NCBI GenBank assembly: GCA_011939005.1
Contig: GCA_011939005.1_4858.1
Length of the DNA stretch: 64,000 nt
Strand: one strand, 5' to 3'
Source: a phage
Part shown: positions 1-39,261 of the stretch, one piece after another
Layout: each line of letters starts with the position of its first letter
How positions within the stretch are numbered: the first letter of the stretch is position 1
Position numbers and translations under genes: made by a program
The notes under the pieces: generated by a model
Told to the model about the DNA's origin: nothing
Seen by the model: only the letters and a program-made list of their open reading frames with translations
The model's database searches: none

Positions 1-1239
1 CACGTTCTTATCAGCAGAACGGTTATACTCACCTTTACGCATGGCTTCATCGTATTCACGACCAATCTCTTCACGGAAGTCGTTATAGACTTCATACGTC
101 TCAGAACAGAACGCCTTGTCAAGGATCTCAAACGCTTTCGGTGACCAGACAATGTTCTTGTCTTTGGACATCGCAAAATAGAACCGCACGATATCATTGT
201 AAAAACGTTTCAAAGCGTTCGCGTAGTGATCTAACTCGCGTTTGTTCTCTTCGGTACATGCGATATTGTTAACACCACGATCGCATTTGGTTTCGTCCCG
301 CCATACCTGAATATCAACGACACGAGAACCGGTACGTTCCATCTTTTCAAAGTCGCCGGCCTGACGCGCTTTGTAATGCTCAGGGTCAGCGTCAACATAC
401 TCACAACGGTCGAAGTGCGGAGAGATATGTTGTGTTTCACCTACGTGCGAGTCAATGGCTGCCCATAGCTTATCGAAACGGCGCGCGGCAATAACCAACC
501 CATCATCACGAATTGCCTGTCCTTTATTGGGCAGGTACTGTGGTCGACGAACGCCATCAATACCCGTTGTCCCATACGTGTCAAGCAGGTACTCGTCGTC
601 GCGCAAGGTAAAGTCAATTGCACGCAAACCATAAGCGTGCATCGCCTTCGCTGCAGTTTCGGAGATGGTGTACGAGTCCTCGATAATGTCCGGGTGCGAC
701 ATTGTCACGGTGTGCAGGTTGACCCCATCGACAAACTCACCGTCTTTCTGTGCCGGCAGTACGGTAAGCATTTCATCTTTTTCCAGGTGCTGCGTCTGTC
801 CGCGCAGCAACGCCTGAAGTTTCCCAGTAGCCTCTTTCTTAGACGAGAAAATGTTATCGTGGTTGGTGTAATACTTAATATCGATTACATCAATCATCAC
901 TTTGCGCTGGTTGGTTAAATCTGCGCGCTTGAAGAAGATAACATGCTGGAGCGGATCGTGATCCCCTTCACGACCATAGCGTGCAAAAACAGCTGCACGA
1001 GTAACACCTTCTTTGGTTGTGTAACTGCACACAGTACCACTGTCTTCCACGATATCGTTAAAACAATAATCGTGGTAGTTCACATCAGCGCCGGTAAAAT
1101 GGATAGTCGGATCTGGATTGTCCAGTGGTACCGCCGACTTCATATGTCCACCCACCATTGAGGCACGTGCCCCAGATACGCCAGTGATATTCACCTCACG
1201 GTCAGCAACGCTTGACATGAGTTCGACTGGTGTTTTCAT
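1..1239 (-). CDS. hypothetical protein, N-terminal portion (ORF runs off the window start)
   Basis: Minus-strand frame open from ATG at 1237-1239 (MKTPVELMSSVADREVNITG...) to position 1, checked by hand for about 330 nt; AAAAGGAG 8 nt upstream. Absent from the ORF track because it has no stop inside the window. Confidence 0.6.
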   Translation of the reverse strand, partial: MKTPVELMSSVADREVNITGVSGARASMVGGHMKSAVPLDNPDPTIHFTGADVNYHDYCFNDIVEDSGTVCSYTTKEGVTRAAVFARYGREGDHDPLQHVIFFKRADLTNQRKVMIDVIDIKYYTNHDNIFSSKKEATGKLQALLRGQTQHLEKDEMLTVLPAQKDGEFVDGVNLHTVTMSHPDIIEDSYTISETAAKAMHAYGLRAIDFTLRDDEYLLDTYGTTGIDGVRRPQYLPNKGQAIRDDGLVIAARRFDKLWAAIDSHVGETQHISPHFDRCEYVDADPEHYKARQAGDFEKMERTGSRVVDIQVWRDETKCDRGVNNIACTEENKRELDHYANALKRFYNDIVRFYFAMSKDKNIVWSPKAFEILDKAFCSETYEVYNDFREEIGREYDEAMRKGEYNRSADKNV

Positions 1240-1269
1240 TCGTAAATGCTCCTTTTGGTTACCTCGGTA

Positions 1270-1284
1270 AGATAATATCTATCT
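1270..1284. promoter_or_regulatory. copy 1 of recurring motif AGATAATATCTATCT, in divergent intergenic region
   Basis: Exact 15-mer between minus gene start 1239 and plus gene start 1306. Confidence 0.4.
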
Positions 1285-1305
1285 GTTTTATTTTAAGGAG
1301 AGACG

Positions 1306-1629
1306 ATGCTAGATAAATTTGCTACCTTATCCGAAATAATACCTTCGCCTGATTCGACCAAGTATAAGGTGTTGCATGACTATACAGACTTCCTTCGCAA
1401 ACACCCAGATACTACAGAAGAAGTTGTTGACCCAAAATATGCCTACCCAGAGGTACACAGTTTCTACGCGTACTGTCGTCTCAAACAGTACGATAATAGT
1501 ATTATTTATCCGATGATGTTAATGAACGGAATTTCTACTCCGTTTGATTTCACGCCAGAGATAAGAACCTTATTGGTTCCTAGTGTCGGTGTGGTAAGTA
1601 ACATCTTATCGACTATCGTAGAATCTTGA
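1306..1629 (+). CDS. hypothetical protein (107 aa)
   Basis: ORF with AAGGAGAG RBS about 8 nt upstream of ATG; followed by hairpin terminator. Confidence 0.5.
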   Translation: MLDKFATLSEIIPSPDSTKYKVLHDYTDFLRKHPDTTEEVVDPKYAYPEVHSFYAYCRLKQYDNSIIYPMMLMNGISTPFDFTPEIRTLLVPSVGVVSNILSTIVES

Positions 1630-1660
1630 AAAAAAGAAGGGACGCCCAGTCCCTTCTTTC
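1629..1660. terminator. bidirectional intrinsic terminator
   Basis: Stem GAAGGGAC/GTCCCTTC with A-run upstream and T-rich tract downstream, between convergent genes. Confidence 0.5.
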
Positions 1661-1666
1661 TAACGC

Positions 1667-3034
1667 TTAACGTAAATTAGCTGATGAGAATGGTAGGTTG
1701 CCTAAACTGCTGCTACTTCCGCCACCTAAACCACCCAGACCACCTAACACGTCACTACTCCCTCCTAAGAGGTTGGTGCTACCGCCGCCCAACTGCGTGC
1801 TACCCCCCAAGAGATTATTACTACTTCCCAGCAAACCAGAACCCAGACCACTTTCTTTCGTCACCGCATTACCACGCAGCGCTTCACCGAGAGACAGTTC
1901 TTTAATTGTCCCTTTCGGTAAATGGCCGTTGTTCTCACGCAGCGCTTCCTGAATCTTCGGTGCTAACGCGTTGAAGCTATTAGCTGAAGACGCCTGTTGC
2001 GCTTTCTTCGCACGGAAATAGTTTACCGGATCGTTGAGATCAAGATTTTCCTGCGGAGCTTGTTGAGAAGCTAAAGCAACGACCGGCTTTGTGCCGGCAG
2101 GTGTACGCCCGATACGGAAATCCGTTGCGGTGGTGTCTGTTGCCTGATCGGTGCGTGGGCCGGTATTATACGGCAGAGTTTGGATAACGTTATCATAAAC
2201 GCTCATGTTATCCAGTTGGCCAATCCATTCTTCTTCTAACGGACGCAGTGGAGTGTGGTCACGCAGACCACGAACCACTTGATTGTAGTTGGTCACGTAT
2301 TGTGCCCAACCGCGTGCCAAAGAACCGAAGTACGGACGCGGATCGTTAGAACCCGTAACCGAAGGATACCAACCAAACACTGCAGTGAGCAGGTTAAAGA
2401 TAATGACCTTATCCTGCTTACGCTGGAGCTTGGCACCGAAGAATGTTGCCGTACCATCCAGTGACTCTTCTTCAAACATGTGTTTGTAGTTCGCCACGCG
2501 GATATATTTGATACCTTCAATGGTCATATCGCTGGAGATGAAGATACTGGTGATCTTTGTCTTTTTATCTTCTTCCAGCAAACCGTAAACGTAGTTCTTC
2601 ACTGCGTGCCAGCTCTGAACCAGTTTCTTATCCATCGTCGGATCTTTCAGGTCAGCACAAACCACATCGCTTAAAAACTTCTTGTACGATGCCAGACGGA
2701 TATTTTTTCCTTCGGCTGCTGTTTCCAAAATCGCATCGATTAACTCGAAGCTTTTCAGGAAGAGGTTCGCGCTGATGGCTTTCTTCAGGAAACGAATCGT
2801 TCCAGATTCGCCAGCCAGTACCGATTCACACAGTGGGTGGAACGCATGACATTCACTACCTTCGTCATCTTCCAACCCACGCTTAATCATCGCTGCAGTT
2901 GGAAGCACCAAGCGGCGCTTCACTTTGTTGTAGGTGAACATTGCCGGATGACCATCATCGATGGTCAACATGTCACCTTCGAATCCGTATCCGAGCGAGG
3001 TCAGAAACGAACGGTAGAATTCAATCAATTTCAT
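1667..3034 (-). CDS. hypothetical protein with Gly/Leu-rich C-terminal tail (possible virion protein)
   Basis: 455-aa ORF; C-terminus LGGSTQLGGGSTNLLGGSSDVLGGLGGLGGG resembles tail of adjacent 3047..4747 product. Confidence 0.65.
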   Translation of the reverse strand: MKLIEFYRSFLTSLGYGFEGDMLTIDDGHPAMFTYNKVKRRLVLPTAAMIKRGLEDDEGSECHAFHPLCESVLAGESGTIRFLKKAISANLFLKSFELIDAILETAAEGKNIRLASYKKFLSDVVCADLKDPTMDKKLVQSWHAVKNYVYGLLEEDKKTKITSIFISSDMTIEGIKYIRVANYKHMFEEESLDGTATFFGAKLQRKQDKVIIFNLLTAVFGWYPSVTGSNDPRPYFGSLARGWAQYVTNYNQVVRGLRDHTPLRPLEEEWIGQLDNMSVYDNVIQTLPYNTGPRTDQATDTTATDFRIGRTPAGTKPVVALASQQAPQENLDLNDPVNYFRAKKAQQASSANSFNALAPKIQEALRENNGHLPKGTIKELSLGEALRGNAVTKESGLGSGLLGSSNNLLGGSTQLGGGSTNLLGGSSDVLGGLGGLGGGSSSSLGNLPFSSANLR

Positions 3035-3046
3035 GGTTAATAATCC

Positions 3047-4747
3047 TTAATCAATGAGACCGTTGCCGAGTCCGTTTCCGCCTATACCGCCTAAGCCACC
3101 ACCCAGGTCAAGACCTCCAAGAGGATCTAAGCCACCTGTGTTAGTTGGAATGTTAGATAGCATTCGACCCCGGCCTTGGCCTTTCTCGAATTCTGTATAA
3201 CCTTCTTCTACGGCTTTCAACAGCGTTGCGGTGTTCTGTGCCAGCTCACCAACGTATTTGAGATCGGTGGTGTTGCCGGTATGGAGACGGAATTGCATAA
3301 ACGACGCGTAGGTGTAATATTCCAGCGGTTCGTCGTCGACACGGATTTCAATACGAGTAACGGTCCCCAACAATGCGGTGACCAGCATGTGGCAGCGAAT
3401 ATGGTTATGTTTAGTAACCTGAACCATCGCTTCTTTCATGTTCTGCAAGAAACGACGACCTAACGCAGCAGGTAACTGATGGTGCGTGATGCTGCTGACT
3501 GAGTTAGGAATAACTTCCAGCGTAGGCTCTATCATGATATCTGTGTTGCGATTATCAAAGACAAAGCTCACTTCACCAATCAGGTTACGTGACATAATCG
3601 GCCCGATAGACATAGCCAGATCATACGCAACTAGACTACCCTGTGTGGAGAAGCCATTACGTCCAATCCAGTGGTCGGTTTGGTTAACCAGCCCTGCACC
3701 CAACCCACGGCGACTTGCCAGCGCCAGCGATTCACGGATACATTCATCCAACCGCATTGGGTTGACAATCGCATTACGCAAATCAGCCAAACGGAACGTC
3801 GCCTTACTGGTTGCTTTCCAACCGCCAGATACATCAGACATCCCGTTCTGGAGTGCTTGACGCATCGCAGCAATCAGTTCGTGGTTGCTGTAGTTACGGA
3901 TAACACCACGTTGCTTCAATTCAGATTCAACGCCGATGGAGTTATTACCTGCAAAGAAGCTTTCCACGCTACCGAGTTCGGTATCTACCCCAGAACTTGC
4001 CAGATACGCATTACTGATTGCAGATACGTAGTTTTCTGGACGCTGGAGTTGGGATACCATCAACTGTGGTGCAGAGCTACTGGTTGCGGATAGCACAGAG
4101 TCGCTCGTTGGGACGAACTTCTCACCGCTATTCATTTCAATACGTTTTACCATGTCCGCCGCTTTCGCGATCGAAATGATATCTACCGTACTTTCTGTTT
4201 GACCTTCAACAGACAACGCTTTCGATAAAACGTAGTTATCCAGTAGACGGAATGAGTCTGGGTTCAATGTTTTGCCGCCCAGGGCATCGTGTGTATACGT
4301 TGCCTGTAAGCCGTAGATGTCGTTAATGTACAACACCATATCGTCCGGCAGCAAGCTACCCAGGCTGGTTTCTGCCTGACTGGTATAACCGGAGACGATA
4401 TATTGCGTTTCCTGAGTGCGTGTTGCATTCAGAGGTTTGGCAATAAACACCGCCACGAAGTTAAAGATACCGGTATCACGTGATTCCCATTGGAACTGTA
4501 CAGGACGATTGTCATCATCGGACACGTTGATGAATGGACGCTCAAAACCATTCTGGGTGCCATCGAAGCCCACGATGGCAGATAATGCTTCTTGATACTG
4601 CTGTGTTCCCACAGCCTTTTCCCCGCCCAGTTCAACCGCTGCTGCTAAGTCATCCAGTGCACCCGTCGATGCGTTAAAGCCGATGCGGCGACGAACTTGC
4701 TCTGGAACATCGTAGACCGGATACATCAGTAGATTTACAAGCTGCAT
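3047..4747 (-). CDS. hypothetical protein with Gly-rich C-terminal tail (possible virion protein)
   Basis: 566-aa ORF; C-terminus GGLDPLGGLDLGGGLGGIGGNGLGNGL; tandem with 1667..3034. Confidence 0.65.
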   Translation of the reverse strand: MQLVNLLMYPVYDVPEQVRRRIGFNASTGALDDLAAAVELGGEKAVGTQQYQEALSAIVGFDGTQNGFERPFINVSDDDNRPVQFQWESRDTGIFNFVAVFIAKPLNATRTQETQYIVSGYTSQAETSLGSLLPDDMVLYINDIYGLQATYTHDALGGKTLNPDSFRLLDNYVLSKALSVEGQTESTVDIISIAKAADMVKRIEMNSGEKFVPTSDSVLSATSSSAPQLMVSQLQRPENYVSAISNAYLASSGVDTELGSVESFFAGNNSIGVESELKQRGVIRNYSNHELIAAMRQALQNGMSDVSGGWKATSKATFRLADLRNAIVNPMRLDECIRESLALASRRGLGAGLVNQTDHWIGRNGFSTQGSLVAYDLAMSIGPIMSRNLIGEVSFVFDNRNTDIMIEPTLEVIPNSVSSITHHQLPAALGRRFLQNMKEAMVQVTKHNHIRCHMLVTALLGTVTRIEIRVDDEPLEYYTYASFMQFRLHTGNTTDLKYVGELAQNTATLLKAVEEGYTEFEKGQGRGRMLSNIPTNTGGLDPLGGLDLGGGLGGIGGNGLGNGLID

Positions 4748-18487: not shown

Positions 18488-20767
18488 TTACTCCTCCGCT
18501 TCTTCCCCATCTTCTTCCTCTCCATCACGTTCAGATTTCTTAACGTACTCACCGCTACCTAATTCTTCCTTGACGGAATCTACAGACTCACCGTAGTAAT
18601 CCGAAAGCAGACGAGTTCTGTTCTTGTCCATCATGAACACACCCAGACATTCCAAGATGTGATAGTAAGGTTCTACTGTGGAGAATGCGCTTCGACGTGT
18701 GTCTGCAGCATCAATCAGCTCCGGCGGAATACCGAAGTTTTCCACCAGGAACTCTGGCAGTATCAGAGTGCGATAGGTACGATAGTTGTTTTCTTCGAAC
18801 CACCGTGTTGCAGTGGTCTTAATCATCGGGTCTTTAATGTTTTCCAGCCACTCTTTAACGGCTGTTTTGTTCTCCAGGTTTACCGGAAGTTTCACGGCGT
18901 CATAAGGCGGTTCGTCCAGGTAGCCGTACTTCGGTCCAAAGATAGCGTTGTACATGCGGTGGTAGTGGTAGCTCTTTTCATCATCTTCAGAGTACGCACT
19001 ACGGTCTTTGACGTTGGTTGTTTTCAGGTAGCCTGCTTTACCAGCGCGAATAGAATCCACCACAACGTGCTCAATTGCAGCAACCTTTTCCAGCAGAGGC
19101 AGAATCTTAATCTTATCGCCGCGCGCTACAATCTCACAGAGTTCTTTAATCGTGCGTTTGAACTCTTTCATGACCACCGGAGGAATGTTCGACGTACGTA
19201 AAGACACGCCCTTAACTTCTAACTCAGGGTCAGACTTCAACTGCCCTTCCTGGCCAGTGATGATGGAGAAATAGTGTTTTGCTTTCGTGGTTAACGCAAA
19301 GGAGTCGAACTTAAATTCGTTCTTCATTGCGTACAAGAACAGACGCTCTTTCGCCACACCGATGTTCGCCGACATACTCGCCATCAGATGACGTAAGTGT
19401 TGGGTTGCGATATAAATCATCGCATCCGATACGCGCGTAGCTTCACGACCGTAATGTTGACCGGTATACCACTGTGCCCACCACTGTGCAGTCATCATCG
19501 TGGAGTCGGTATCAGATACCACACCAACACGACGAACTACGTCGGGCATCCTGGCAATGTTGATTGGCAGGTTTTTGGTGGTCAGGATGTTACGAATCAA
19601 ACATGCGTACTTACCGATGGTTTTCTGCAGATATACAGCTGAGCGAATCAGCTCTTTGTATTTTTCCTGCTTATCCCACGGTTCCGCTTTGTTCGTGTTT
19701 TCGTCTTTAAGTTTAACGTCAGAGAACGACTTACCTAACGGCACGATATCAGTACGGAACTGCGAGATAATAATCTGCATATCGCCGTCGATGGAGCGCT
19801 CGGCGGCGTCCCAATCTGTGATCTCGTCTTCCATCTCCTCAGCAATCAGCGCACCGATAAACCCACGCATGAATTCATCGTTGTATTTTGCCAAGTGATA
19901 GAAATCGCCCATGTAGACAAACGCAGCACGCACTAATGGGCTACAGTTACCTACGTAGTGGCGGATAAACTCCAGTCCTTCATCATTGCGGAAATAGAAG
20001 TCTGCAGAGTACGTAACCACTTCCATAACCTCGTCCACAGTTGGGTAGTGGAGGTTATAGAGTTCCATACACTTCTTGAACTCCGCAAAGTTAGTCAGTG
20101 TACCAATAGACAGTAAGTGATCGATAACACGGGACGGTGTATCGTAGTGACGATTACCACCCAGTAGACGTTCGTTGCCAGCGTTACCGAACGATGTAGC
20201 CGTACGGCAGGTTGACGTCAATACAGAGTGCGAAGACTGGTTAAAGATTACCGTGTACGGTGATGAGAAAGCACCAGACATCCCGTTGTTCAGCGTTTTA
20301 ACAGCATTCTGTTCGTTCTTTTTGTTAATACGTAAAACTTCGTTGCCTGCAGCACCGGCTGCATACATCTCTTTCTTAACAACCGCACGCTTACGCACGT
20401 TCTCTGCGGTAAATTCAGCAAGCTTAGAGCGCTTGACGTGTTCCGGCAAATAGAAAGTCAACGACGGTGCAGAAATGATCTGCTTATCAATCACTGTACG
20501 GAACAGTTTATCTACCGTGGTGTATTTTTCTTCGCGATCGCCGGTCTTTTGATTGCGCACCCACATCTTACACACGGGGAATTCGTGTACTAACTCACCA
20601 CCAGGTTGGAACATTTCTTCGACCTGCTGTCGACAGAACTCCAAAGAATATTTCCCGTTGGTGACGGTATGAATGTAGAGCGCCAGTTGTTCGTAGTACG
20701 CATCGATAACGTCAATGTCGCGATGATACTCGTCTTGACTAAGACGAAATGGTGAATTGTAGTCCAC
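18488..20767 (-). CDS. hypothetical 759-aa protein; weak family-B-polymerase-like motifs (speculative)
   Basis: KTLNNGMSGAF (compare motif B Kx3NSxYG) upstream of VVSDTDSTMM (compare motif C YGDTDS); acidic C-terminus; no exonuclease domain seen. Confidence 0.65.
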   Translation of the reverse strand: MDYNSPFRLSQDEYHRDIDVIDAYYEQLALYIHTVTNGKYSLEFCRQQVEEMFQPGGELVHEFPVCKMWVRNQKTGDREEKYTTVDKLFRTVIDKQIISAPSLTFYLPEHVKRSKLAEFTAENVRKRAVVKKEMYAAGAAGNEVLRINKKNEQNAVKTLNNGMSGAFSSPYTVIFNQSSHSVLTSTCRTATSFGNAGNERLLGGNRHYDTPSRVIDHLLSIGTLTNFAEFKKCMELYNLHYPTVDEVMEVVTYSADFYFRNDEGLEFIRHYVGNCSPLVRAAFVYMGDFYHLAKYNDEFMRGFIGALIAEEMEDEITDWDAAERSIDGDMQIIISQFRTDIVPLGKSFSDVKLKDENTNKAEPWDKQEKYKELIRSAVYLQKTIGKYACLIRNILTTKNLPINIARMPDVVRRVGVVSDTDSTMMTAQWWAQWYTGQHYGREATRVSDAMIYIATQHLRHLMASMSANIGVAKERLFLYAMKNEFKFDSFALTTKAKHYFSIITGQEGQLKSDPELEVKGVSLRTSNIPPVVMKEFKRTIKELCEIVARGDKIKILPLLEKVAAIEHVVVDSIRAGKAGYLKTTNVKDRSAYSEDDEKSYHYHRMYNAIFGPKYGYLDEPPYDAVKLPVNLENKTAVKEWLENIKDPMIKTTATRWFEENNYRTYRTLILPEFLVENFGIPPELIDAADTRRSAFSTVEPYYHILECLGVFMMDKNRTRLLSDYYGESVDSVKEELGSGEYVKKSERDGEEEDGEEAEE

Positions 20768-20814
20768 GTCTGGCCCCTTGGTTTTTTACTCAGCTATAAG
20801 ACTTGCGGGATACG

Positions 20815-20853
20815 TGAAAAAAGAAAAAAAATAACCCACTCCGAAGAGTGGGC
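20815..20853 (-). terminator. intrinsic terminator
   Basis: CCCACTC-CGAA-GAGTGGG hairpin followed (minus sense) by a long U-run. Confidence 0.55.
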
Positions 20854-20858
20854 TTACT

Positions 20859-21269
20859 TTAACCGGCAATACTCTCAACGATTTCAAAATCGACGTCATT
20901 GAAACCATTGGCAGCCAGGGCACGTTTAAGGTCGTCAATCTCCTGTTTGTTATCCAGGGTGACGGTGAAGCGCACCTTCGTGTTTTCGATAATCTGAACA
21001 TCACGAATCCAGGCATCGGCAGCGACTTTTGGTTTGCCGTCAACACCTTTGAAAATCAGATACGTGTATTTGTTCACGTTATCTTCTGGCTGAGAAACAA
21101 TGGAAGAGTAGATATTCTTCTGCTCCGCCATCACATCCATATAACTTTTGGCCATTTCATAGCCAACGCCGGTTGCCAGAATAATTACACGCGTCTCTTG
21201 CCCTTTCAAAGGGGTGTCGTAAACAATGTTAACTTTTTGCCCAGCGACCAGTGTGCGTAAATCGAACAT
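20859..21269 (-). CDS. hypothetical protein (136 aa)
   Basis: ORF followed by terminator. Confidence 0.55.
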   Translation of the reverse strand: MFDLRTLVAGQKVNIVYDTPLKGQETRVIILATGVGYEMAKSYMDVMAEQKNIYSSIVSQPEDNVNKYTYLIFKGVDGKPKVAADAWIRDVQIIENTKVRFTVTLDNKQEIDDLKRALAANGFNDVDFEIVESIAG

Positions 21270-21868
21270 TATTCCTCCTCAGGAACATCAATAAGCAGCC
21301 TCATATCCAAAGCATTGGTCACTGGTGTTTTCGGGAAGTCCACCTTGAGAACCAACGTACGGATAGCGCCATTATGCGCCTCTAAGAACATCTTCACCGG
21401 CTCAACATAATGCGCCATAACTGCCTCCGTTACGGCGGTCGCCATTAGATCCAGCGTGTAGTGCTTGAGCGTAGCCCAGTGTGAACTGTCTTGCTCTTTG
21501 TACACCAACGCTAAATCTAACAATGGTGTCAGCCCGTTAAAATGTGACTCAGTGCTGGCTTCCATTGCAACATTAAACTTCCACCGACGGTACTCGTCAG
21601 TCAGTAACGTAAAGAAGTCGTGCAAGAACGTAAGGTCGGTGCGAGGCAACATGCAACGAAACTCGTACGTATAGCTAGTCAGCGTTTCACGTATAAGTTC
21701 GTGCATCTCGTCCTGGTCCAATTCTTTTACGGGTATCTCCACGGTGATACGCGGTAGGCGGACTACGGTGTCAACCACCAAATCCAAAAACCGCATACCG
21801 TCCGGAAGATACCCCACGACCCCCAAGTCCACATTAATCAAGTGGTTGGCGATCACCTTGTAGATCAT
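21269..21868 (-). CDS. hypothetical protein (199 aa)
   Basis: ORF; stop/start overlap with the downstream gene. Confidence 0.55.
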   Translation of the reverse strand: MIYKVIANHLINVDLGVVGYLPDGMRFLDLVVDTVVRLPRITVEIPVKELDQDEMHELIRETLTSYTYEFRCMLPRTDLTFLHDFFTLLTDEYRRWKFNVAMEASTESHFNGLTPLLDLALVYKEQDSSHWATLKHYTLDLMATAVTEAVMAHYVEPVKMFLEAHNGAIRTLVLKVDFPKTPVTNALDMRLLIDVPEEE

Positions 21869-29312: not shown

Positions 29313-29313
29313 T

Positions 29314-29382
29314 TGCTTTGACCGGACTCGAACCGGCGACCTTCCTCGATGAGGCTGCTCTACCTACCTGAGCTACAAAGCC
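29314..29382 (-). pseudogene. tRNA-like element, truncated (69 nt) with aberrant anticodon/variable region
   Basis: Minus-sense acceptor GGCTTTG/CAAAGC, D-arm GCTC-AGGTAGGTA-GAGC and T-arm GCCGG-TTCGAGT-CCGGT are good, but the anticodon stem has a mismatch and the variable loop is about 3 nt too short. Confidence 0.3.
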
Positions 29383-31983: not shown

Positions 31984-32932
31984 GGTTTAATTCTCCGTTT
32001 GGTTTATCATACCTCACGCAGAATCTGTAAATTTTAATCAGCCAGGTACTGGCGTTTCACAACGGGAGTACCCACCCCTCTCGTCTGTTCCGAGCCGTCA
32101 AGATCCGATCACCCCACTTTGGAGTTATCCCCCAAGTCTGCGGTTCTACACGCAGACCCCTTTTCGACGCAACGCCGAATTCGAATCAGTTTTGGCCCGA
32201 CGCCAGAGCGGAATCAGCGATAACTATCGGAGGTAAGTTCAACGACGTCTCTCCGCTGCCCAGTCCTCTGGCGCTGCCACGGTCAACTCGGATTTTGTCA
32301 TGGGTGCGCAGTCGACTTTCTCGACACTCTCGCAAACCGAACTACGCCCGACGTAGCACCGTCGGCAGGTCGGTTATTTACCGAGTACCTGAATGGGTGG
32401 TGATTGTCGGAATCCCCGCCGACGCTCACCGGTTCTGTTCCACGGCGAAAGTTTTCCAGAACATAATAAATCACGCAGTGTTAGATTGCGCTTTGTCGAA
32501 GACACCACGGTAGGTATTTTCGAAAAAGCGTCCTGGGTATCAGTCCCAGGACTTGGAGCCCTAGTGTGCAGGGTTTAAAAAGTGATTGGACCATTGGCGC
32601 GGTCAATCGCTATTCGCATATAACAACAAACTCACGTAATCAAAAAATTACCGGCTCGAGGCGTAGGCGTCCAGGAGCCGGTGAGTCACACAGCAGTGAG
32701 TCCCTCTGCGGGGATTTTCGTGGAGCTTGTCGTTGGAATAAAAATCCGTCCCCGGACGGGTTGGTGTTGTGGGTCGACTTGTCAGAGTCTACCTACCAGG
32801 GAGGCGACCACCAAAGCTATGGGTTTTTGGACATCGAGTGGTGGTCTGAACACACGATAGGGAAACCACGTAAAAAATACACAGGGTACCCGATCTCGGT
32901 CTTCCGTCCGATCACGATCTCTTAATAAGGAT

Positions 32933-33096
32933 CACGCGCGCGCCCGCACGCGTTTTAAGATCTTAATATATTAATATATTTATTTATATAAATAATTATA
33001 ATAATTAAATATAATACCTAAAGGTATTATTATATTTAATATTATTATATATTTTAAAAGATCCTGGAGGATACGGGTGCGCGCACGCGCACGCGT
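32933..33096. repeat. AT-rich imperfect palindrome flanked by alternating CG/CA tracts (candidate origin-like element)
   Basis: Core of about 110 nt, nearly pure A/T, with inverted symmetry about ATAATACC-TAAA-GGTATTAT (centre about 33020); GATC-containing ends; flanks CACGCGCGCGCCCGCACGCG and GGGTGCGCGCACGCGCACGCG. Confidence 0.5.
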
Positions 33097-33684
33097 ATAA
33101 GGAAAGGGTCTTCGACCCGATCCACAGGATCGATCTAAAAAACAATCTAAGTGATTGTTTTAAAAAGAAATTTTGAGAATTAGATTAAATTATCCCCTAA
33201 GGGGGATTTTAGAGTGAGTTAAACAACCCAAAGAACTCGTAAGTAACCGACAGTGTGTGTCGGTTACAGAACGATCCAGTTTTCACCCAGACATGGCACG
33301 AAGTGCTACCCAACGTGTGATCGTCGCGGCGACCGGCGACCGTCGTCCCGGAACCGAAACGGGAATGGCTCTCTCGCGCTCTCAGCGGCCCGCTGGCGCG
33401 ATTTTCCGGTAGGGGGAACCCAAGTGTACTGGGTCAGTTATAAATCTCGTTCTAGCGCTTTCTAGAGCGTTTTTAATAACCGGTTAAAAAACATACAATC
33501 CTGAATCCCCATTCCCCGTATTTCCTCGCCCCGACAAAAATAAATTCACCGACTCGATGCAAGACCCCCTCTAAAACGCACGTAATTGACCCTAGAAAAC
33601 GATAAACTATCAAAAATGAGCTACCCTACATCCAGACCACTTAATCGTTTTCTGGTGTTTCCTAGACCTCTTTAATCGGATGGT

Positions 33685-33735
33685 TAAAAAAACAAAAAAA
33701 ATAAGATTGGCGTACTCCCCGAAGAGAGTACGCCT
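33685..33735 (-). terminator. intrinsic terminator
   Basis: GGCGTACTC...GAGTACGCC hairpin followed (minus sense) by a long U-run. Confidence 0.55.
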
Positions 33736-33741
33736 AGTGAC

Positions 33742-34296
33742 TTAACACTTGATGGTGTAGCCATCAAGGCCAAGGTGTACTGGTTTTATCCATAACCCTG
33801 GCTCCCCGAAAATATTCAGGTCGTAAGTTTGGTAATGCATGATCTTTGCAGGAACATGCACACCCATGCGTTGCAGAAATTCCCAGACGGCGACGTAGCG
33901 TTCACGAGTGATGAACATTAGCCCGGAGTCGAACCCGGAACCGATGTCTAGGAAATTACCAAGAGAACTGTCAAAACTTGACACCCCATCTTGAGTAAGT
34001 GCGACCAACCCTTTAGTTAAATCTCTGTGGTTGTCAATGAAGTTACAGAGATCTACGATGGTTATTTGACCGTAAATACGACGGAGGACGGCAGCAACAG
34101 CCAAAATCTCGCTGGTATTTCCGTAGTCACCTAAAGGGTTATGGTCCATCATCGCAGTAATTATGCTTGTGTCGCAGAGGTCGATTAACCGCTGGTCGTG
34201 TACCACCAGGTTAAGACCTTGCTCCACCTGCACGGTTGGCGCAGTAAACATAGGAGGCTCCTTACGTTTTGACTGACTGTGAAGGTAATCTGGCAT
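33742..34296 (-). CDS. hypothetical protein (start possibly ATG 34251)
   Basis: Track start overlaps the upstream gene; internal ATG (MFTAPTVQV) removes the overlap. Confidence 0.55.
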   Translation of the reverse strand: MPDYLHSQSKRKEPPMFTAPTVQVEQGLNLVVHDQRLIDLCDTSIITAMMDHNPLGDYGNTSEILAVAAVLRRIYGQITIVDLCNFIDNHRDLTKGLVALTQDGVSSFDSSLGNFLDIGSGFDSGLMFITRERYVAVWEFLQRMGVHVPAKIMHYQTYDLNIFGEPGLWIKPVHLGLDGYTIKC

Positions 34297-35395
34297 CGTA
34301 CATTAAAAAGATTTCCAGCAGGTTCATACCCGTCGCGTAAAAGATTTGGTCTGTGATGACACTCACTAACGCATCTGGGTCAATCGCATCTACTGCGAAA
34401 TCGCTGTCGAACTGCCAGAACTCGACGTCATCCCCCTTTTCAAACGTCGCGGCATACAATCCAGGTTTCACACCACGCCGGAACGAAAAGAGTTTTGCGT
34501 CAGACTCAGTGTCCTTACCATAAATTTCCCCGTCGGTCAGTGTGATCGCTGCGCGTTTACACCGAGTTACCGTAAGGAGCGCACGGTTTGCAGATGCTTG
34601 CGATTTAAACGGATAGGGGCCATCGTATGTCGGGACATTCTGGTCGCCTAAGGCATCAAGTGCCTTACTCCGATAGACTACCGGAGACTTAAAATTACAC
34701 AGTCGATTCCCTTCGGTAAACATTGTGTATTCGACCTTAACGTCGGTACCGACGAGGTCAGCAGGGGACACTTTGTAGTGTGCTAACTGTCCCTGCACGC
34801 GGCGAGAGAGCATCGATGCCAGGAACGTGTGGTTGCCCTGTGTACGCAAGACATACCCAAACTCTGTGCAGTCGACGATACGAGCGTCCATACGCCGTAC
34901 AGGCTCCAGCCGGTAAGTCACATCATTCGCTTCGATAAGAAACTGACTGATGCTAACATCGCGAGATCGATGTTTGATTGCTTCAAACACTTCACCCGCT
35001 TCCAGAATAGCTGGTTCAATTACATTGACCTGGAATGGGAGGGGTTTCGTCGGCCGTTGACCCATTGTTGTCACTGTCATCGAACGTAGCCACGGGTCGT
35101 CCTCGCTAGGGTCATTGGAGAGCCAATGCGTTAACCAGCGAGAAAGATTCTGGGGAATCGTTGCGGTTGAATATAAAATCACGGTACCCATTATGCCTGC
35201 ATCGGCCAGCAAGCGCGCGAGTACCGTGTTCATCGAATCGTATTTGCCATTTCGAAGAATAGGTAATCCCCCGACCTGGACCATTTCGCAGATGACGCCG
35301 TGCGGCAGCACCCACATCTTCACTTGTTGGGCAGAATGTATCTGCCCCGTGCGTAGCTTTTCTTGCCACGCGTGCTTACGTTCATAGTTCATCAT
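34262..35395 (-). CDS. hypothetical protein (377 aa)
   Basis: Long ORF. Confidence 0.6.
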   Translation of the reverse strand: MMNYERKHAWQEKLRTGQIHSAQQVKMWVLPHGVICEMVQVGGLPILRNGKYDSMNTVLARLLADAGIMGTVILYSTATIPQNLSRWLTHWLSNDPSEDDPWLRSMTVTTMGQRPTKPLPFQVNVIEPAILEAGEVFEAIKHRSRDVSISQFLIEANDVTYRLEPVRRMDARIVDCTEFGYVLRTQGNHTFLASMLSRRVQGQLAHYKVSPADLVGTDVKVEYTMFTEGNRLCNFKSPVVYRSKALDALGDQNVPTYDGPYPFKSQASANRALLTVTRCKRAAITLTDGEIYGKDTESDAKLFSFRRGVKPGLYAATFEKGDDVEFWQFDSDFAVDAIDPDALVSVITDQIFYATGMNLLEIFLMYDARLPSQSVKT

Positions 35396-36910: not shown

Positions 36911-37153
36911 TCAGGCGAGTGCTCCCGATACGGCAACTTGATGTAGGGTATACACAACGTGTAGCCCCGCGGTCGATAGTCCACCGATAAGCAATACGCC
37001 AAAGCTACAGATAATCTGTCCGAGCCGCATTGTGCGTGTGCAGACATCGTGGCTTTGTGCGTGTATGCGTATTACTTCGATGGTGTGGCGTAAGCCAAAG
37101 TACAGGCAAATCCACATTACCAGCACGATTGCATAGTAGAGTTGAGTCATCAC
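36911..37153 (-). CDS. small hydrophobic protein (80 aa, two predicted membrane helices)
   Basis: Hydrophobic stretches YYAIVLVMWICLYFGL and ICSFGVLLIGGLSTAGL; overlaps the terminase stop. Confidence 0.45.
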   Translation of the reverse strand: MMTQLYYAIVLVMWICLYFGLRHTIEVIRIHAQSHDVCTRTMRLGQIICSFGVLLIGGLSTAGLHVVYTLHQVAVSGALA

Positions 37154-39261
37154 TTCATCCTCTGTCGTTGGATTAGCTCTTTCAAGCTTTCCATCGATGC
37201 GACGTTACGAACGTCAGTGTTGAGTTGAGAGACGAGCGCTTGAATACGATTCTTGTACATGAGCTGTTGTACCGGGTCGGCTACAACTTGACTCTGTCTA
37301 ATCATCGTTTCAATTTGCCCCATCAGTTGTTGTTGCTTTTCTTCTTCCTCGACTGCAGCCTCTTCATCGAATTCACCTGCCATGCCCCCAAGCATATTGC
37401 GGTTGCGCATCATCAGTCGGCTGTTACTTATACCGTAGTGGCCTAAGTTGTTGCCGAACAGAAGTAACCACATTGCCAGAAGCCAGGATATTACCAGGTC
37501 ATCGTGACCGGATGCACGGTGGTCTATGCGCCCGTTTCGTTCGACGAGACCGAGGATTTGGTCGATCAATTCGCCTGACCGCAGTAAGTCCGCAGAAAGA
37601 CGCAACGCCGTGGTAAATACTTCACCATACAACTTACGGCGTTTATCCTGGTCGGTTGAGAAACCGATGTATTTACGGAATTTGTCCCAGAAGCGCTCTG
37701 GACTGCCCACAGGGCCACGATGGAACTCTTTGTAAAGTTCATCGTTCCTTGAGTAATCCTGGGTCACTTTCACGTACAAACGACGATGCAAATCGCGAAC
37801 CTTAGATTGCAGCTGCAGTATAATGGCATCTGCTACCGAGGAGCCGGTAGACCGTCGTTCCAGAATGAGTACCGTGTTCGGATATTCGATCATGAAGTCT
37901 GCTAAGTGAATCGCAAACCCGATGACGTTTGTTTCGTTCACGGTGAGCTTGCCGGCATATTCGGCAGTGACAGAGTTGACGATTGACATGGCAATGGCGT
38001 CACGTCCAACGGCTTCGGAAGTATCCAAACCGATGATGTGGCGGTCTTGCATTTTAACCAGCATCTGCTCTTCAGTGTAATACCAATCCGTTACGTAGTT
38101 GGATGCAGAGATAATTTTCTGCGCCGCACGAACACGCGAGTCGTTCATACGTCTTGCATCATCGCCTGAGAACGGTTTGTTGTAACCACCGGTTGTCCAT
38201 TCACCACCGAAGTCACGGCGGATTTGGTCTAGTGTACCTGGGGCGTTCGCAATCATATCTGCGAGTTCTTCGTCCGTGGTACCGAGTTGGCGGTGGTTGT
38301 ATTTCACGTAGAACATGATACGTGGAATCTTCGCAGTAGAGCCTTTGCGAATCATGTCAATCAGTTGTGCACGAGTCGGAATGTCGATATACCGTTCATC
38401 CCACGAAATCCCCGACGTCATCAGGCTGTACATGTACTCGCCTTCTTCTGTCGCCAAATCCCCAGGCGTTGTTGCGAAGACGTTGCCGTATGGAACACCT
38501 TCGGCTTCGTTAATACGACGCGCCGCGGTACCCGATGCTAGTGCAGCAGGGAGGATATGGTGGATGTTGTTGGTAAACGGTCCTTCATCCGAGAACAGGC
38601 GTCCGGCTGTGAGTCCACGGCCTACCCCGTTCGCAGCTTCCTTATCGTTTTGACCGATGCCGGTGATAAGTTTGTTACCCTGTGCTAGACAAGCAAATGT
38701 CTCACGGTTATCAGGATCGTCCGGATGATGAGGCCAGAGATAATCCGGTAACGCGTTACGCAGTTGTTTCATTTTGTTGATAGTTTCTTCACGCAGGGCA
38801 GGACCCTTCGTGATAAGAATCGTACGTGAGTTCTCCAGGAAGCGCATCAGCCACAATAGCAATGCGGACATCCCGACGGTCTTACCATGCTGACGGAGAA
38901 ACTCGATAGCGGCGTCGATGTTGTTGAAGAAAATCCAATACATCGAAAAGTTACCGCGGTCTAGACGAAACGGCATCCCGTTCTTTACACCATCCGCAGG
39001 GACCCGGACACACTCACGGAAGAAGTACCATGGGTTTTCCGCACACTCCGTAACAATCATCGCTTTTTGTTCGAGTGTTAAATCCGGGCTAAACGGATCA
39101 ACACCACGGAGTTCGGGATTGTGTAATGCCAGGTGGACGTACCAATGCTGGACACCTAATCCTTGTAGTGTTGTGGCGAATTGAAGGAAGTGCACGTTTG
39201 GTGTGACATCGTCAACAATCGCCCCCGGATAGTGTCGCCAATCGTTTTTTCGCAGTATCAT
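37150..39261 (-). CDS. terminase large subunit
   Basis: Walker A-like LRQHGKT in the context FLRQHGKTVGMSALLLW (compare T4 gp17 SRQLGKT); size and N-terminal ATPase layout fit. Confidence 0.65.
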   Translation of the reverse strand: MILRKNDWRHYPGAIVDDVTPNVHFLQFATTLQGLGVQHWYVHLALHNPELRGVDPFSPDLTLEQKAMIVTECAENPWYFFRECVRVPADGVKNGMPFRLDRGNFSMYWIFFNNIDAAIEFLRQHGKTVGMSALLLWLMRFLENSRTILITKGPALREETINKMKQLRNALPDYLWPHHPDDPDNRETFACLAQGNKLITGIGQNDKEAANGVGRGLTAGRLFSDEGPFTNNIHHILPAALASGTAARRINEAEGVPYGNVFATTPGDLATEEGEYMYSLMTSGISWDERYIDIPTRAQLIDMIRKGSTAKIPRIMFYVKYNHRQLGTTDEELADMIANAPGTLDQIRRDFGGEWTTGGYNKPFSGDDARRMNDSRVRAAQKIISASNYVTDWYYTEEQMLVKMQDRHIIGLDTSEAVGRDAIAMSIVNSVTAEYAGKLTVNETNVIGFAIHLADFMIEYPNTVLILERRSTGSSVADAIILQLQSKVRDLHRRLYVKVTQDYSRNDELYKEFHRGPVGSPERFWDKFRKYIGFSTDQDKRRKLYGEVFTTALRLSADLLRSGELIDQILGLVERNGRIDHRASGHDDLVISWLLAMWLLLFGNNLGHYGISNSRLMMRNRNMLGGMAGEFDEEAAVEEEEKQQQLMGQIETMIRQSQVVADPVQQLMYKNRIQALVSQLNTDVRNVASMESLKELIQRQRMK

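Follow-up and report, generated by a model that had tools for sequence, protein, structure and literature searches.

A Conserved AT-Rich Element between Alternating CG/CA Tracts Is a Candidate Replication Origin of SPN3US-like Jumbo Phages

In a 64,000-nucleotide stretch of phage DNA (NCBI GenBank assembly GCA_011939005.1, contig GCA_011939005.1_4858.1; hereafter, the window), an element of approximately 165 bases (positions 32933–33099) consists of an AT core held between two CG/CA tracts. Our tentative reading, to which we assign a probability of roughly 40%, is that this element is a cis-acting DNA module through which strand opening is controlled, and that it most likely serves SPN3US-like jumbo phages as their replication origin, or as the primary early one; judged by its sequence, it is the best candidate for the place where these phages start to copy their DNA. 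The window equals the reverse complement of Salmonella phage SPN3US positions 209581–240413 plus 1–33167, and the element falls at approximately SPN3US 70–235, i.e., at the conventional record start. The 1.9 kb around the element matched 35 phage records at 92–99% identity, all of the genus Seoulvirus (Salmonella phage SPN3US, the SPFM and SPLA series, Escherichia phage EC001, and Proteus phage 7). SPN3US, a giant phage related to phiKZ, has multisubunit RNA polymerases of both virion and non-virion type (PMC5105663, PMC7598289). Full-text literature searches found no published description of the element and no defined replication origin for SPN3US or other phiKZ-related giant phages, and an origin-prediction attempt on related giant phages was reported to be unreliable (PMC12390700).

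The initial annotation of this DNA had described an abrupt change of base composition at the element, and scans of the full SPN3US genome (240,413 bp, assembled from six fetched pieces) bear this out: the element is the genome extreme in GC content, duplex stability, GATC density, and alternating run length. It holds the lowest-GC 100-nt stretch of the window, at 5% GC compared with 30% for the next, and the lowest of all SPN3US, where the next has 26%. It is also the least stable SPN3US duplex, with a 100-bp nearest-neighbor ΔG of −87.9 kcal/mol compared with −111.9 for the next-lowest and a genome mean of −140.1 (SD 6.1), which places the element 8.5 SD below the mean in stability. The densest GATC window of SPN3US lies here (8 sites, next 4), as does the maximum of the window under study (9 per 300 bp), so that the element carries 8–9 GATC in 300 bp against a genome average of approximately 0.6. 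The right tract is the longest alternating purine-pyrimidine run in SPN3US (23 nt, next 16 nt); by our own calculation, 240 kb of random sequence should contain only about 0.06 runs of at least 23 nt. The exact site of the element is also where several database records break or are corrupted, as a sequencing or assembly artifact might produce, but more than 40 independent records share the sequence, as do 8 independent Logan/ENA assemblies, and the element is kept across four genera. The observation is real and highly non-random, and an explanation by chance composition or artifact, whose probability we put close to nil, is refuted.

The AT core (32953–33059) is the candidate DNA-unwinding element. 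It is 107 nt long with 6 G/C, i.e., 94% A+T, and GATC sites at 32959 and 33060 mark its two ends, much as the initial annotation had it (a nearly pure A/T core of ∼110 nt). To its left lies the tract CACGCGCGCGCCCGCACGCG (32933–32952, 20 nt), GC-rich and mostly alternating purine/pyrimidine, with the alternation interrupted once, at GCCCG; to its right lies GTGCGCGCACGCGCACGCGTATA (33077–33099), 23 nt of perfect alternation that includes GC-rich perfect palindromes. The two tracts, previously noted as similar 20-nt alternating flanks, form a 25-nt direct repeat with 80% identity. Within the core, a central hairpin or cruciform, ATAATACC-TAAA-GGTATTAT, occupies 33009–33032 (arms at 33011–33018 and 33023–33030). 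Comparison with relatives defined two invariant plus-strand boxes at the edges of the element: TAATAAGGATCACGCG on the left (32923–32938) and TTTTAAAAGATCCTGGAGGA on the right (33052–33071), the latter including a GATC and the short inverted repeat TCCT-nn-AGGA. Neither box has a second copy in the window or anywhere else in the SPN3US genome. An upstream conserved box, AACCACGTAAAAAATACACA (32864–32883; minus strand ATTTTTTACGTGG), takes the form CTTGTAAAAAAT / CTGTAAwT in all relatives. The plus-strand motif TATAAGGAAAGG at 33096–33107 resembles TAATAAGGA on the left and takes the form TAAT(A)GAAGGG in relatives, and TATAAT/TATAAG comes after the right GC tract. GATC sites cluster on both sides: at 32892, 32910, 32916, and 32930 on the left (cluster 32892–32933, with a fifth site at the core edge, 32959), and at 33119, 33128, and 33132 on the right (33119–33135).

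The element sits in a gene-free gap of 1,758 nt (31984–33741 in the list of open reading frames, ORFs), the conventional start of SPN3US-type records, which is flanked by two minus-strand genes and is the largest intergenic gap of SPN3US as read by eye, rather than computed, from the RefSeq tables. The 1.7 kb non-coding stretch claimed earlier was correct: gene callers and close Seoulvirus annotations agree, no gene was called in the gap in 4 independent near-full-length Logan contigs, and the close Seoulvirus relatives checked have no annotated coding sequence there. A 119-aa ORF at 32566–32925 was rejected as coding because it is unannotated in those relatives and its alignment indels are not multiples of three. 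The homologous gap of some more distant relatives holds small annotated ORFs or an HNH gene.

Conservation of the element is deep. No Seoulvirus assembly compared, even at only 92% identity across the gap, has a substitution in the core, whose one change is a 2-nt TC indel near its right end; in the 8 further Logan/ENA assemblies the core is identical, with few differences, located in the right GC tract and the flanks. By sensitive blastn against the Huxley/Machina-type Erwinia phages, only window 32983–33107 of the gap is still detectable. We read the syntenic region in 13 distinct relatives, two of them IMG/VR contigs and the others from four genera: Seoulvirus (including SPAsTU and pEa29), Machinavirus (Huxley, ChrisDB, pEa4, and pEa9), Erskinevirus (phiEaH2), and Wellingtonvirus (Kwan and pEa11). 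The initial annotation had proposed that a lack of the element in syntenic relatives would speak against it; it was present at the syntenic place in all four genera examined. The common architecture runs, in order, through an upstream CTTGTAAAAAAT-like box, TAATAAGGATCACGCG (replaced in the ChrisDB clade), a GC tract, an AT core with one or two hairpins, an invariant TTTTAAAAGATCCTGKAGGA, a GC tract of ∼15–25 nt, a TAAT(A)GAAGGG-type motif, a hairpin whose sequence varies, and GTAAGT...TGTTTTTAAAAAGAATTTT. The AT core ranges from 63 to 107 nt and from 84% to 96% A+T. The left box is identical in Seoulvirus, phiEaH2, Huxley-type Machinavirus, and the Wellingtonvirus pEa11, differs at 2 positions in Kwan, and is missing from the ChrisDB/pEa4/pEa9 clade. 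Of the 13 relatives, 12 have the right-box core AAAAGATCCTGnAGGA, and in Kwan one C is inserted; the core is retained in pEa11, where the positions just 5′ of it are changed. The left tract varies in length and sequence, with uninterrupted alternation of 7–12 nt, and the right tract (15–25 nt) is uninterrupted in 10 of 13 despite sequence drift and contains perfect palindromes of 6–18 nt. GATC clusters are likewise present in 10 of 13, the ChrisDB/pEa4/pEa9 clade being without them. The central hairpin keeps its position, ∼29–38 nt from the right box, and the top of its stem shows compensatory changes between lineages (ACC/GGT, CCC/GGG, ATC/GAT, and all-AT in Kwan). Compared with shuffled sequences, the fold of the core is clearly better in three lineages (z = −2.6 to −3.7), and Huxley is borderline (z = −1.8). 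An IMG/VR scan with the right box returned ∼120 loci, all chance matches except for already known phages.

The local GATC excess stands out against a general shortage of this tetranucleotide: the window has 165 sites where 249 are expected, and SPN3US has 489 where 937 are expected, about half. SPN3US encodes a Dam-family adenine methylase at 96875–97669 of its genome, outside the window (Pfam PF02086; TIGR00571 at 241 bits, cut-off 115), and a syntenic homolog was found in all four element-bearing genera. The methylase is assumed from its family to target GATC.

Origins as different as oriC, P1 oriR, lambda ori, oriS and oriL of herpes simplex virus (HSV), and that of simian virus 40 share a common grammar of an AT-rich unwinding element with protein sites beside it, palindromes, and GATC clusters. 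Two hallmarks of oriC-type origins were found here: an AT-rich unwinding region, in the form of the 107-nt, 94% A+T core with the least stable duplex, and a GATC excess, although the latter is absent in the ChrisDB clade. We hypothesized that, under negative superhelical stress, the core would act as the DNA-unwinding element and melt first in the 240-kb genome. The boxes TAATAAGGATCACGCG and TTTTAAAAGATCCTGGAGGA would bind a phage protein, with the bubble positioned or stabilized and the phage DnaB-like helicase recruited, and the GC-rich alternating tracts would act as clamps that bound the bubble; prone to Z-DNA and hairpins, they may double as supercoil-responsive switches. The co-varying core hairpins would form after strand separation. 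In most lineages, the GATC clusters and the phage Dam-family methylase could provide a timing signal through methylation state, and transcription of the flanking structured RNAs may provide supercoiling or a primer. Protein binding, helicase loading, the roles of Z-DNA, methylation, and transcription, and origin function are what we infer from these features. An origin is preferred because the element is a unique, protected, and deeply conserved cis element at the thermodynamic weak point of the genome, and because of its single-copy edge boxes, structure-prone GC clamps, surviving hairpins, and, in most lineages, a GATC cluster coupled with the phage's own Dam. A fuller version, in which the element is the origin of one clade of phiKZ-related phages and works as a supercoil-gated switch with Z-/cruciform-prone clamps, Dam-methylated GATC, boxes bound by a phage initiator, and flanking structured RNAs, is possible but doubtful.

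Several results weigh against an origin. The initial annotation had suggested a DNA-unwinding element, and its proposal holds as far as the most easily melted site of the genome, Z-DNA- and cruciform-prone flanks, and a non-coding location are concerned; it gains nothing from DnaA boxes, iterons, an adjacent initiator gene, or a GC-skew inflection. No DnaA box (TTWTNCACA, at most 1 mismatch) was found in 32833–33786, which rules out a host-type, DnaA-dependent origin, and counts of this box across the window are at or below chance. No iterons were found: the sole direct repeat is the two-copy GC-tract pair, short WAAG(G)ATC boxes are inconsistently conserved, and an iteron-type origin was rejected because the three or more direct repeats of ∼17–22 bp that would bind an initiator are not present. 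No initiator gene could be identified beside the element, where the flanking proteins have no Pfam or PDB sequence match. Cumulative GC skew shows no inflection at the element; it tracks gene orientation and is uninformative on the origin for that reason. Folded as single-stranded DNA, the AT core of the window does no better than shuffles of the same composition (z = −1.2; 21 of 200 as good). The imperfect palindrome of the initial annotation therefore survives in part: the overall palindrome is not significant, and the central hairpin is the one component supported, via the relatives. GATC clusters and the long alternating tract are both missing in the ChrisDB/pEa4/pEa9 clade and so are non-essential. 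In the more distant genus Derbicusvirus (CR5, EarlPhillipIV, and Phobos), whose neighboring protein is 40–42% identical, this gap is occupied by another region of ∼80% AT, which has palindromes but neither GC tracts nor boxes. Finally, phiKZ-like phages might depend mainly on recombination-dependent replication.

The Derbicusvirus region has an anatomy of its own, with CATTCATT repeats, a TAATTGAT-ACA-ATCAATTA palindrome, and a GGTATCCC...GGATACC hairpin, and it may be a functional analog of the element.

Both flanks of the element contain conserved hairpins. On the right, GGGTC-TTC-GACCC (33106–33118) is kept in most relatives with unrelated stem sequences, phiEaH2-type phages and Kwan having at most a 4-bp GATC stem at this place. 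It is followed by the hairpin AACAATC/GATTGTT and the conserved motif TTTTAAAAAG(A)AATTTT (33141–33167), where the alignment has invariant columns, and by the hairpin GTAACCGAC...GTCGGTTAC (33243–33267). In the latter, 5 pairs are doubly compensated and none is broken across a set of 6 sequences that covers 2 genera and an unclassified phiEaH2-like viral contig. A plus-strand terminator-like hairpin with a T-run follows at 33448–33476, the T-run being kept in 5 of 6 relatives. The left flank carries two minus-strand intrinsic terminators, at 32650–32682 (also in phiEaH2) and 32530–32552 (also in phiEaH2 and pEa29), each with a co-varying stem and a T-run in 6 of 6 relatives. A further strong intrinsic terminator on the minus strand (33709–33734; 11 pairs, then a T-run) lies just after the upstream minus-strand gene and ends it, so read-through into the gap is unlikely. 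There is good support for minus-strand transcription of the left flank. On the right, energy favors the plus-strand fold and the covariation term the minus-strand fold, and relatives give minus-strand terminator-like calls. No Rfam 15 family reached its gathering score in the gap (best hits E ≥ 0.037, below threshold). From these patterns, the right flank (33097–33476) and the left flank (32525–32930) are probably unannotated structured non-coding RNAs, or possibly the structures are DNA hairpins instead. A recurrent motif, GGTTAAAAA(A) and CACGTAAAAAAT, was also observed in the gap (33482–33490, 33682–33690, and 32867–32878); it reads TTTTTTA(A)C on the minus strand and is kept in relatives, and it could serve the gap RNAs as a promoter or processing signal.

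These flanks raise the alternative that the element is a promoter or regulatory hub and nothing more, with the AT core and boxes driving or regulating transcription of structured non-coding RNAs on one or both sides and playing no part in replication; they could, for instance, form a very strong upstream element whose GC spacers respond to supercoiling. We consider this unlikely. Hairpins with compensatory changes on both flanks would be expected of such a hub, as would the two left-flank terminators kept in all six relatives. Because the upstream gene has its own terminator, left-flank transcripts must start between 33700 and 32700; the plus-strand terminator at 33448–33476 suggests outward transcription on the right as well, TATAAT/TATAAG follows the right GC tract, and nearby tRNA genes make this an RNA-gene neighborhood. 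The strand of the right-flank structures is ambiguous, however, and Rfam recognizes no family in them. Jumbo-phage virion RNA polymerase early promoters are near-exact copies of a ∼10–13-nt AT-rich motif (PMC7598289), and virion RNA polymerases are reported to be intolerant of promoter deviations (PMC5312081). A candidate early motif, cagATAGATATTATCT, fits this description; it has 8 copies in the window (minus strand; 1280, 5023, 6439, 15950, 16043, 24918, 27882, and 48952) and 13 in SPN3US, several just upstream of ribosome-binding sites, but none in the gap, and the match at the element center is limited to 9 of 13 positions. For the candidate early motif ATAGATATTATCT (early class only), the gap likewise has no match with at most 1 mismatch. 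The promoter cluster that the initial annotation offered as an alternative can thus be set aside as a cluster of candidate early promoters, whereas a regulatory hub for the flanking RNAs stays a rival. Sigma-70-like matches within a 94% AT stretch are uninformative, and ∼100 bp of near-pure AT with Z-prone clamps and GATC clusters exceeds what any known promoter needs.

Improbable, in our assessment, is a pac site of a headful-packaging phage similar to that of P1, at which the boxes and the GATC clusters on either side would be recognized by the terminase, the bendable AT center would receive the first cut, and Dam would time the cutting. GATC sites do lie on both sides of the ∼100-bp center (5 left, including 32959, and 4 right, including 33060), the element is single copy, the phage encodes a Dam-family methylase, and a distance of only ∼4 kb separates the element from the large-terminase gene on the minus strand (window ∼37107–39218); relatives have been described as headful packagers from terminase homology (PMC6256631). 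Against this, the element is neither in nor adjacent to the terminase gene, from which four genes separate it, the P1 hexamer TGATCA/G is not its repeat unit, the ChrisDB clade keeps the element with only 2–3 GATC, and pac sites do not usually coincide with a genome's thermodynamic minimum. PhageTerm found no defined termini for other phiKZ-like phages (PMC12390700), and assembly breaks or copied convention account for the GenBank records that start inside the element. Still less likely is another structural cis site, whether a recombination or resolution hot spot, a place of phage-nucleus or capsid DNA anchoring or condensation nucleation, or a topological "relief valve." The extreme potential for melting, cruciforms, and Z-DNA would fit any structural role driven by supercoiling, SbcCD-type palindrome nuclease subunits and an SMC-like protein are encoded in the genome, and an HNH endonuclease gene occupies the homologous gap of Kwan and Wellington. 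There is no recombinase nearby, however, and no overall perfect palindrome or long inverted flanks as in hairpin-telomere junctions; a hairpin-telomere/protelomerase or poxvirus-type resolution site was rejected because the best arms are 27 nt and 78% complementary and the flanks are direct rather than inverted. The conserved asymmetric boxes favor a specific protein-DNA machine over a purely physical site.

The AT core tends to be a recurrent breakpoint in short-read assemblies of these phages. Expressed as window positions, six records start at ∼32968 and two at ∼33030, both within the core, and the SPN3US record starts at 33167. These starts were rejected as physical genome ends in favor of assembly breaks or a copied convention: the ends of EC001 join seamlessly across a break in the element, the Proteus phage 7 record lacks 35 nt of the AT core, and bp 1 of the BYU Erwinia records was chosen by alignment to the family (PMC6256631). 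Four Logan contigs of 222–241 kb run straight through the element, and this read-through excludes a fixed genome end there, though not a pac site. We also observed that bases 1–3400 of the SPFM1 record (LR535901.1) are scrambled, with consecutive 60-nt blocks in reversed order and forward orientation, which is a file-handling artifact of the public record; matches to eight other SPFM records, which were not themselves opened, are equally fragmented (20–28 pieces).

The genes around the gap give little indication of function. Sequence searches with the proteins immediately flanking it returned no PHROG function, Pfam match, or PDB match, and the flanking small genes differ from genus to genus. 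A 377-aa neighbor (window 34262–35395, minus strand) is named "putative DNA ligase" in two GenBank records, but Pfam, PHROG, and PDB sequences gave it no family, function, or match. The element stands at the head of a group of small genes and candidate early promoters. The nearest DNA-polymerase gene is ∼11 kb away (SPN3US 11.5–13.8 kb; window ∼19344–21623); the non-virion RNA polymerase subunit genes (29–33 kb), a DNA helicase gene (33.4–35.1 kb), a second DNA-polymerase gene (41–43 kb), and the DnaB-like helicase (∼68 kb) lie further along SPN3US, and of all these only the genes below ∼33 kb are inside the window. The window has two Rfam 15 tRNA matches near the element, both outside the gap. 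One tRNA-like sequence (29313–29382, minus strand) scores 37.7 bits with Rfam, has no ARAGORN call, and is listed as tRNA-OTHER in the SPN3US RefSeq record. Within the gap, a second non-coding block (32075–32183) is ∼80% identical to the distant Machinavirus phages ChrisDB, Caitlin, and pEa9, unlike the rest of the gap, which cannot be aligned with them. The HNH endonuclease gene of Kwan (1205–1714) and that of Wellington, which lie within the homologous non-coding region, may be homing elements aimed at the conserved DNA of the gap.

A single, sharply delimited, and conserved candidate makes the origin question of these phages directly testable. If the element is their origin, it would lead to the identification of the initiator and of the mode in which replication starts, and it would offer a cis element for phage-dependent replicons and engineering tools. 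If it is instead a pac site or a control region for RNA genes, it would still mark the non-coding DNA under the strongest constraint in these genomes and point to unannotated structured RNAs beside it.

We compared the element with known systems. The poxvirus telomere or concatemer junction is similarly AT-rich and imperfectly self-complementary over ∼100 nt, with short conserved flanking sequences, but it sits in long inverted terminal repeats at genome ends, whereas the flanks of the element are not inverted and are read through. A ∼155 bp non-coding element of an unrelated virus genus, reported to be essential before its mechanism was understood, shares genus-wide conservation and nucleotide clusters at fixed positions; its sequence is unrelated, and its anatomy was not compared in detail. 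The P1 pac site spans 162 bp, with 4+3 GATC hexamers on either side of the region that is cleaved, and its cleavage depends on Dam. The element resembles it in size (∼160 bp), in GATC-containing repeats on both sides of a center, and in a phage Dam and headful packaging, and differs in its repeat unit, its position outside the terminase gene, its extremely AT-rich center, and the lack of GATC in some lineages.

The T7 primary origin, T4 oriF/oriG, and ColE1 RNA II also place an AT-rich unwinding element beside transcription units, and, as in the transcription-primed T7 and T4 origins, the phage brings its own RNA polymerases and has structured RNA-like hairpins beside the AT region. No consensus phage promoter, in the form of the candidate early motif, reads into the core, however, and the left-flank units point away from it. 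E. coli oriC and P1 oriR share with the element an AT-rich unwinding region, a strong local GATC excess, and a Dam-bearing replicon, and the left edge of the core begins with GATCTT and AT-rich sequence, as the oriC 13-mers do. In contrast to these origins, the element has no DnaA boxes or iterons, its AT region is 2–3 times longer, and one element-bearing clade is without the GATC excess. A phage nucleus, if it encloses the phage DNA, may keep host SeqA and DnaA away from it. HSV oriS and oriL combine an AT-only center in a palindrome with GC-richer protein boxes in non-coding DNA and form a hairpin when unwound, all of which has a counterpart here. Their AT center is 18–20 bp rather than 107, and their boxes are inverted copies of one UL9 site, whereas the boxes of the element differ and are not inverted copies; no UL9-like gene is known here. 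By analogy, the element would work most like the AT-centered palindromic origins that large DNA viruses have, represented by HSV oriS/oriL, and the Dam-marked origins of bacteria and P1.

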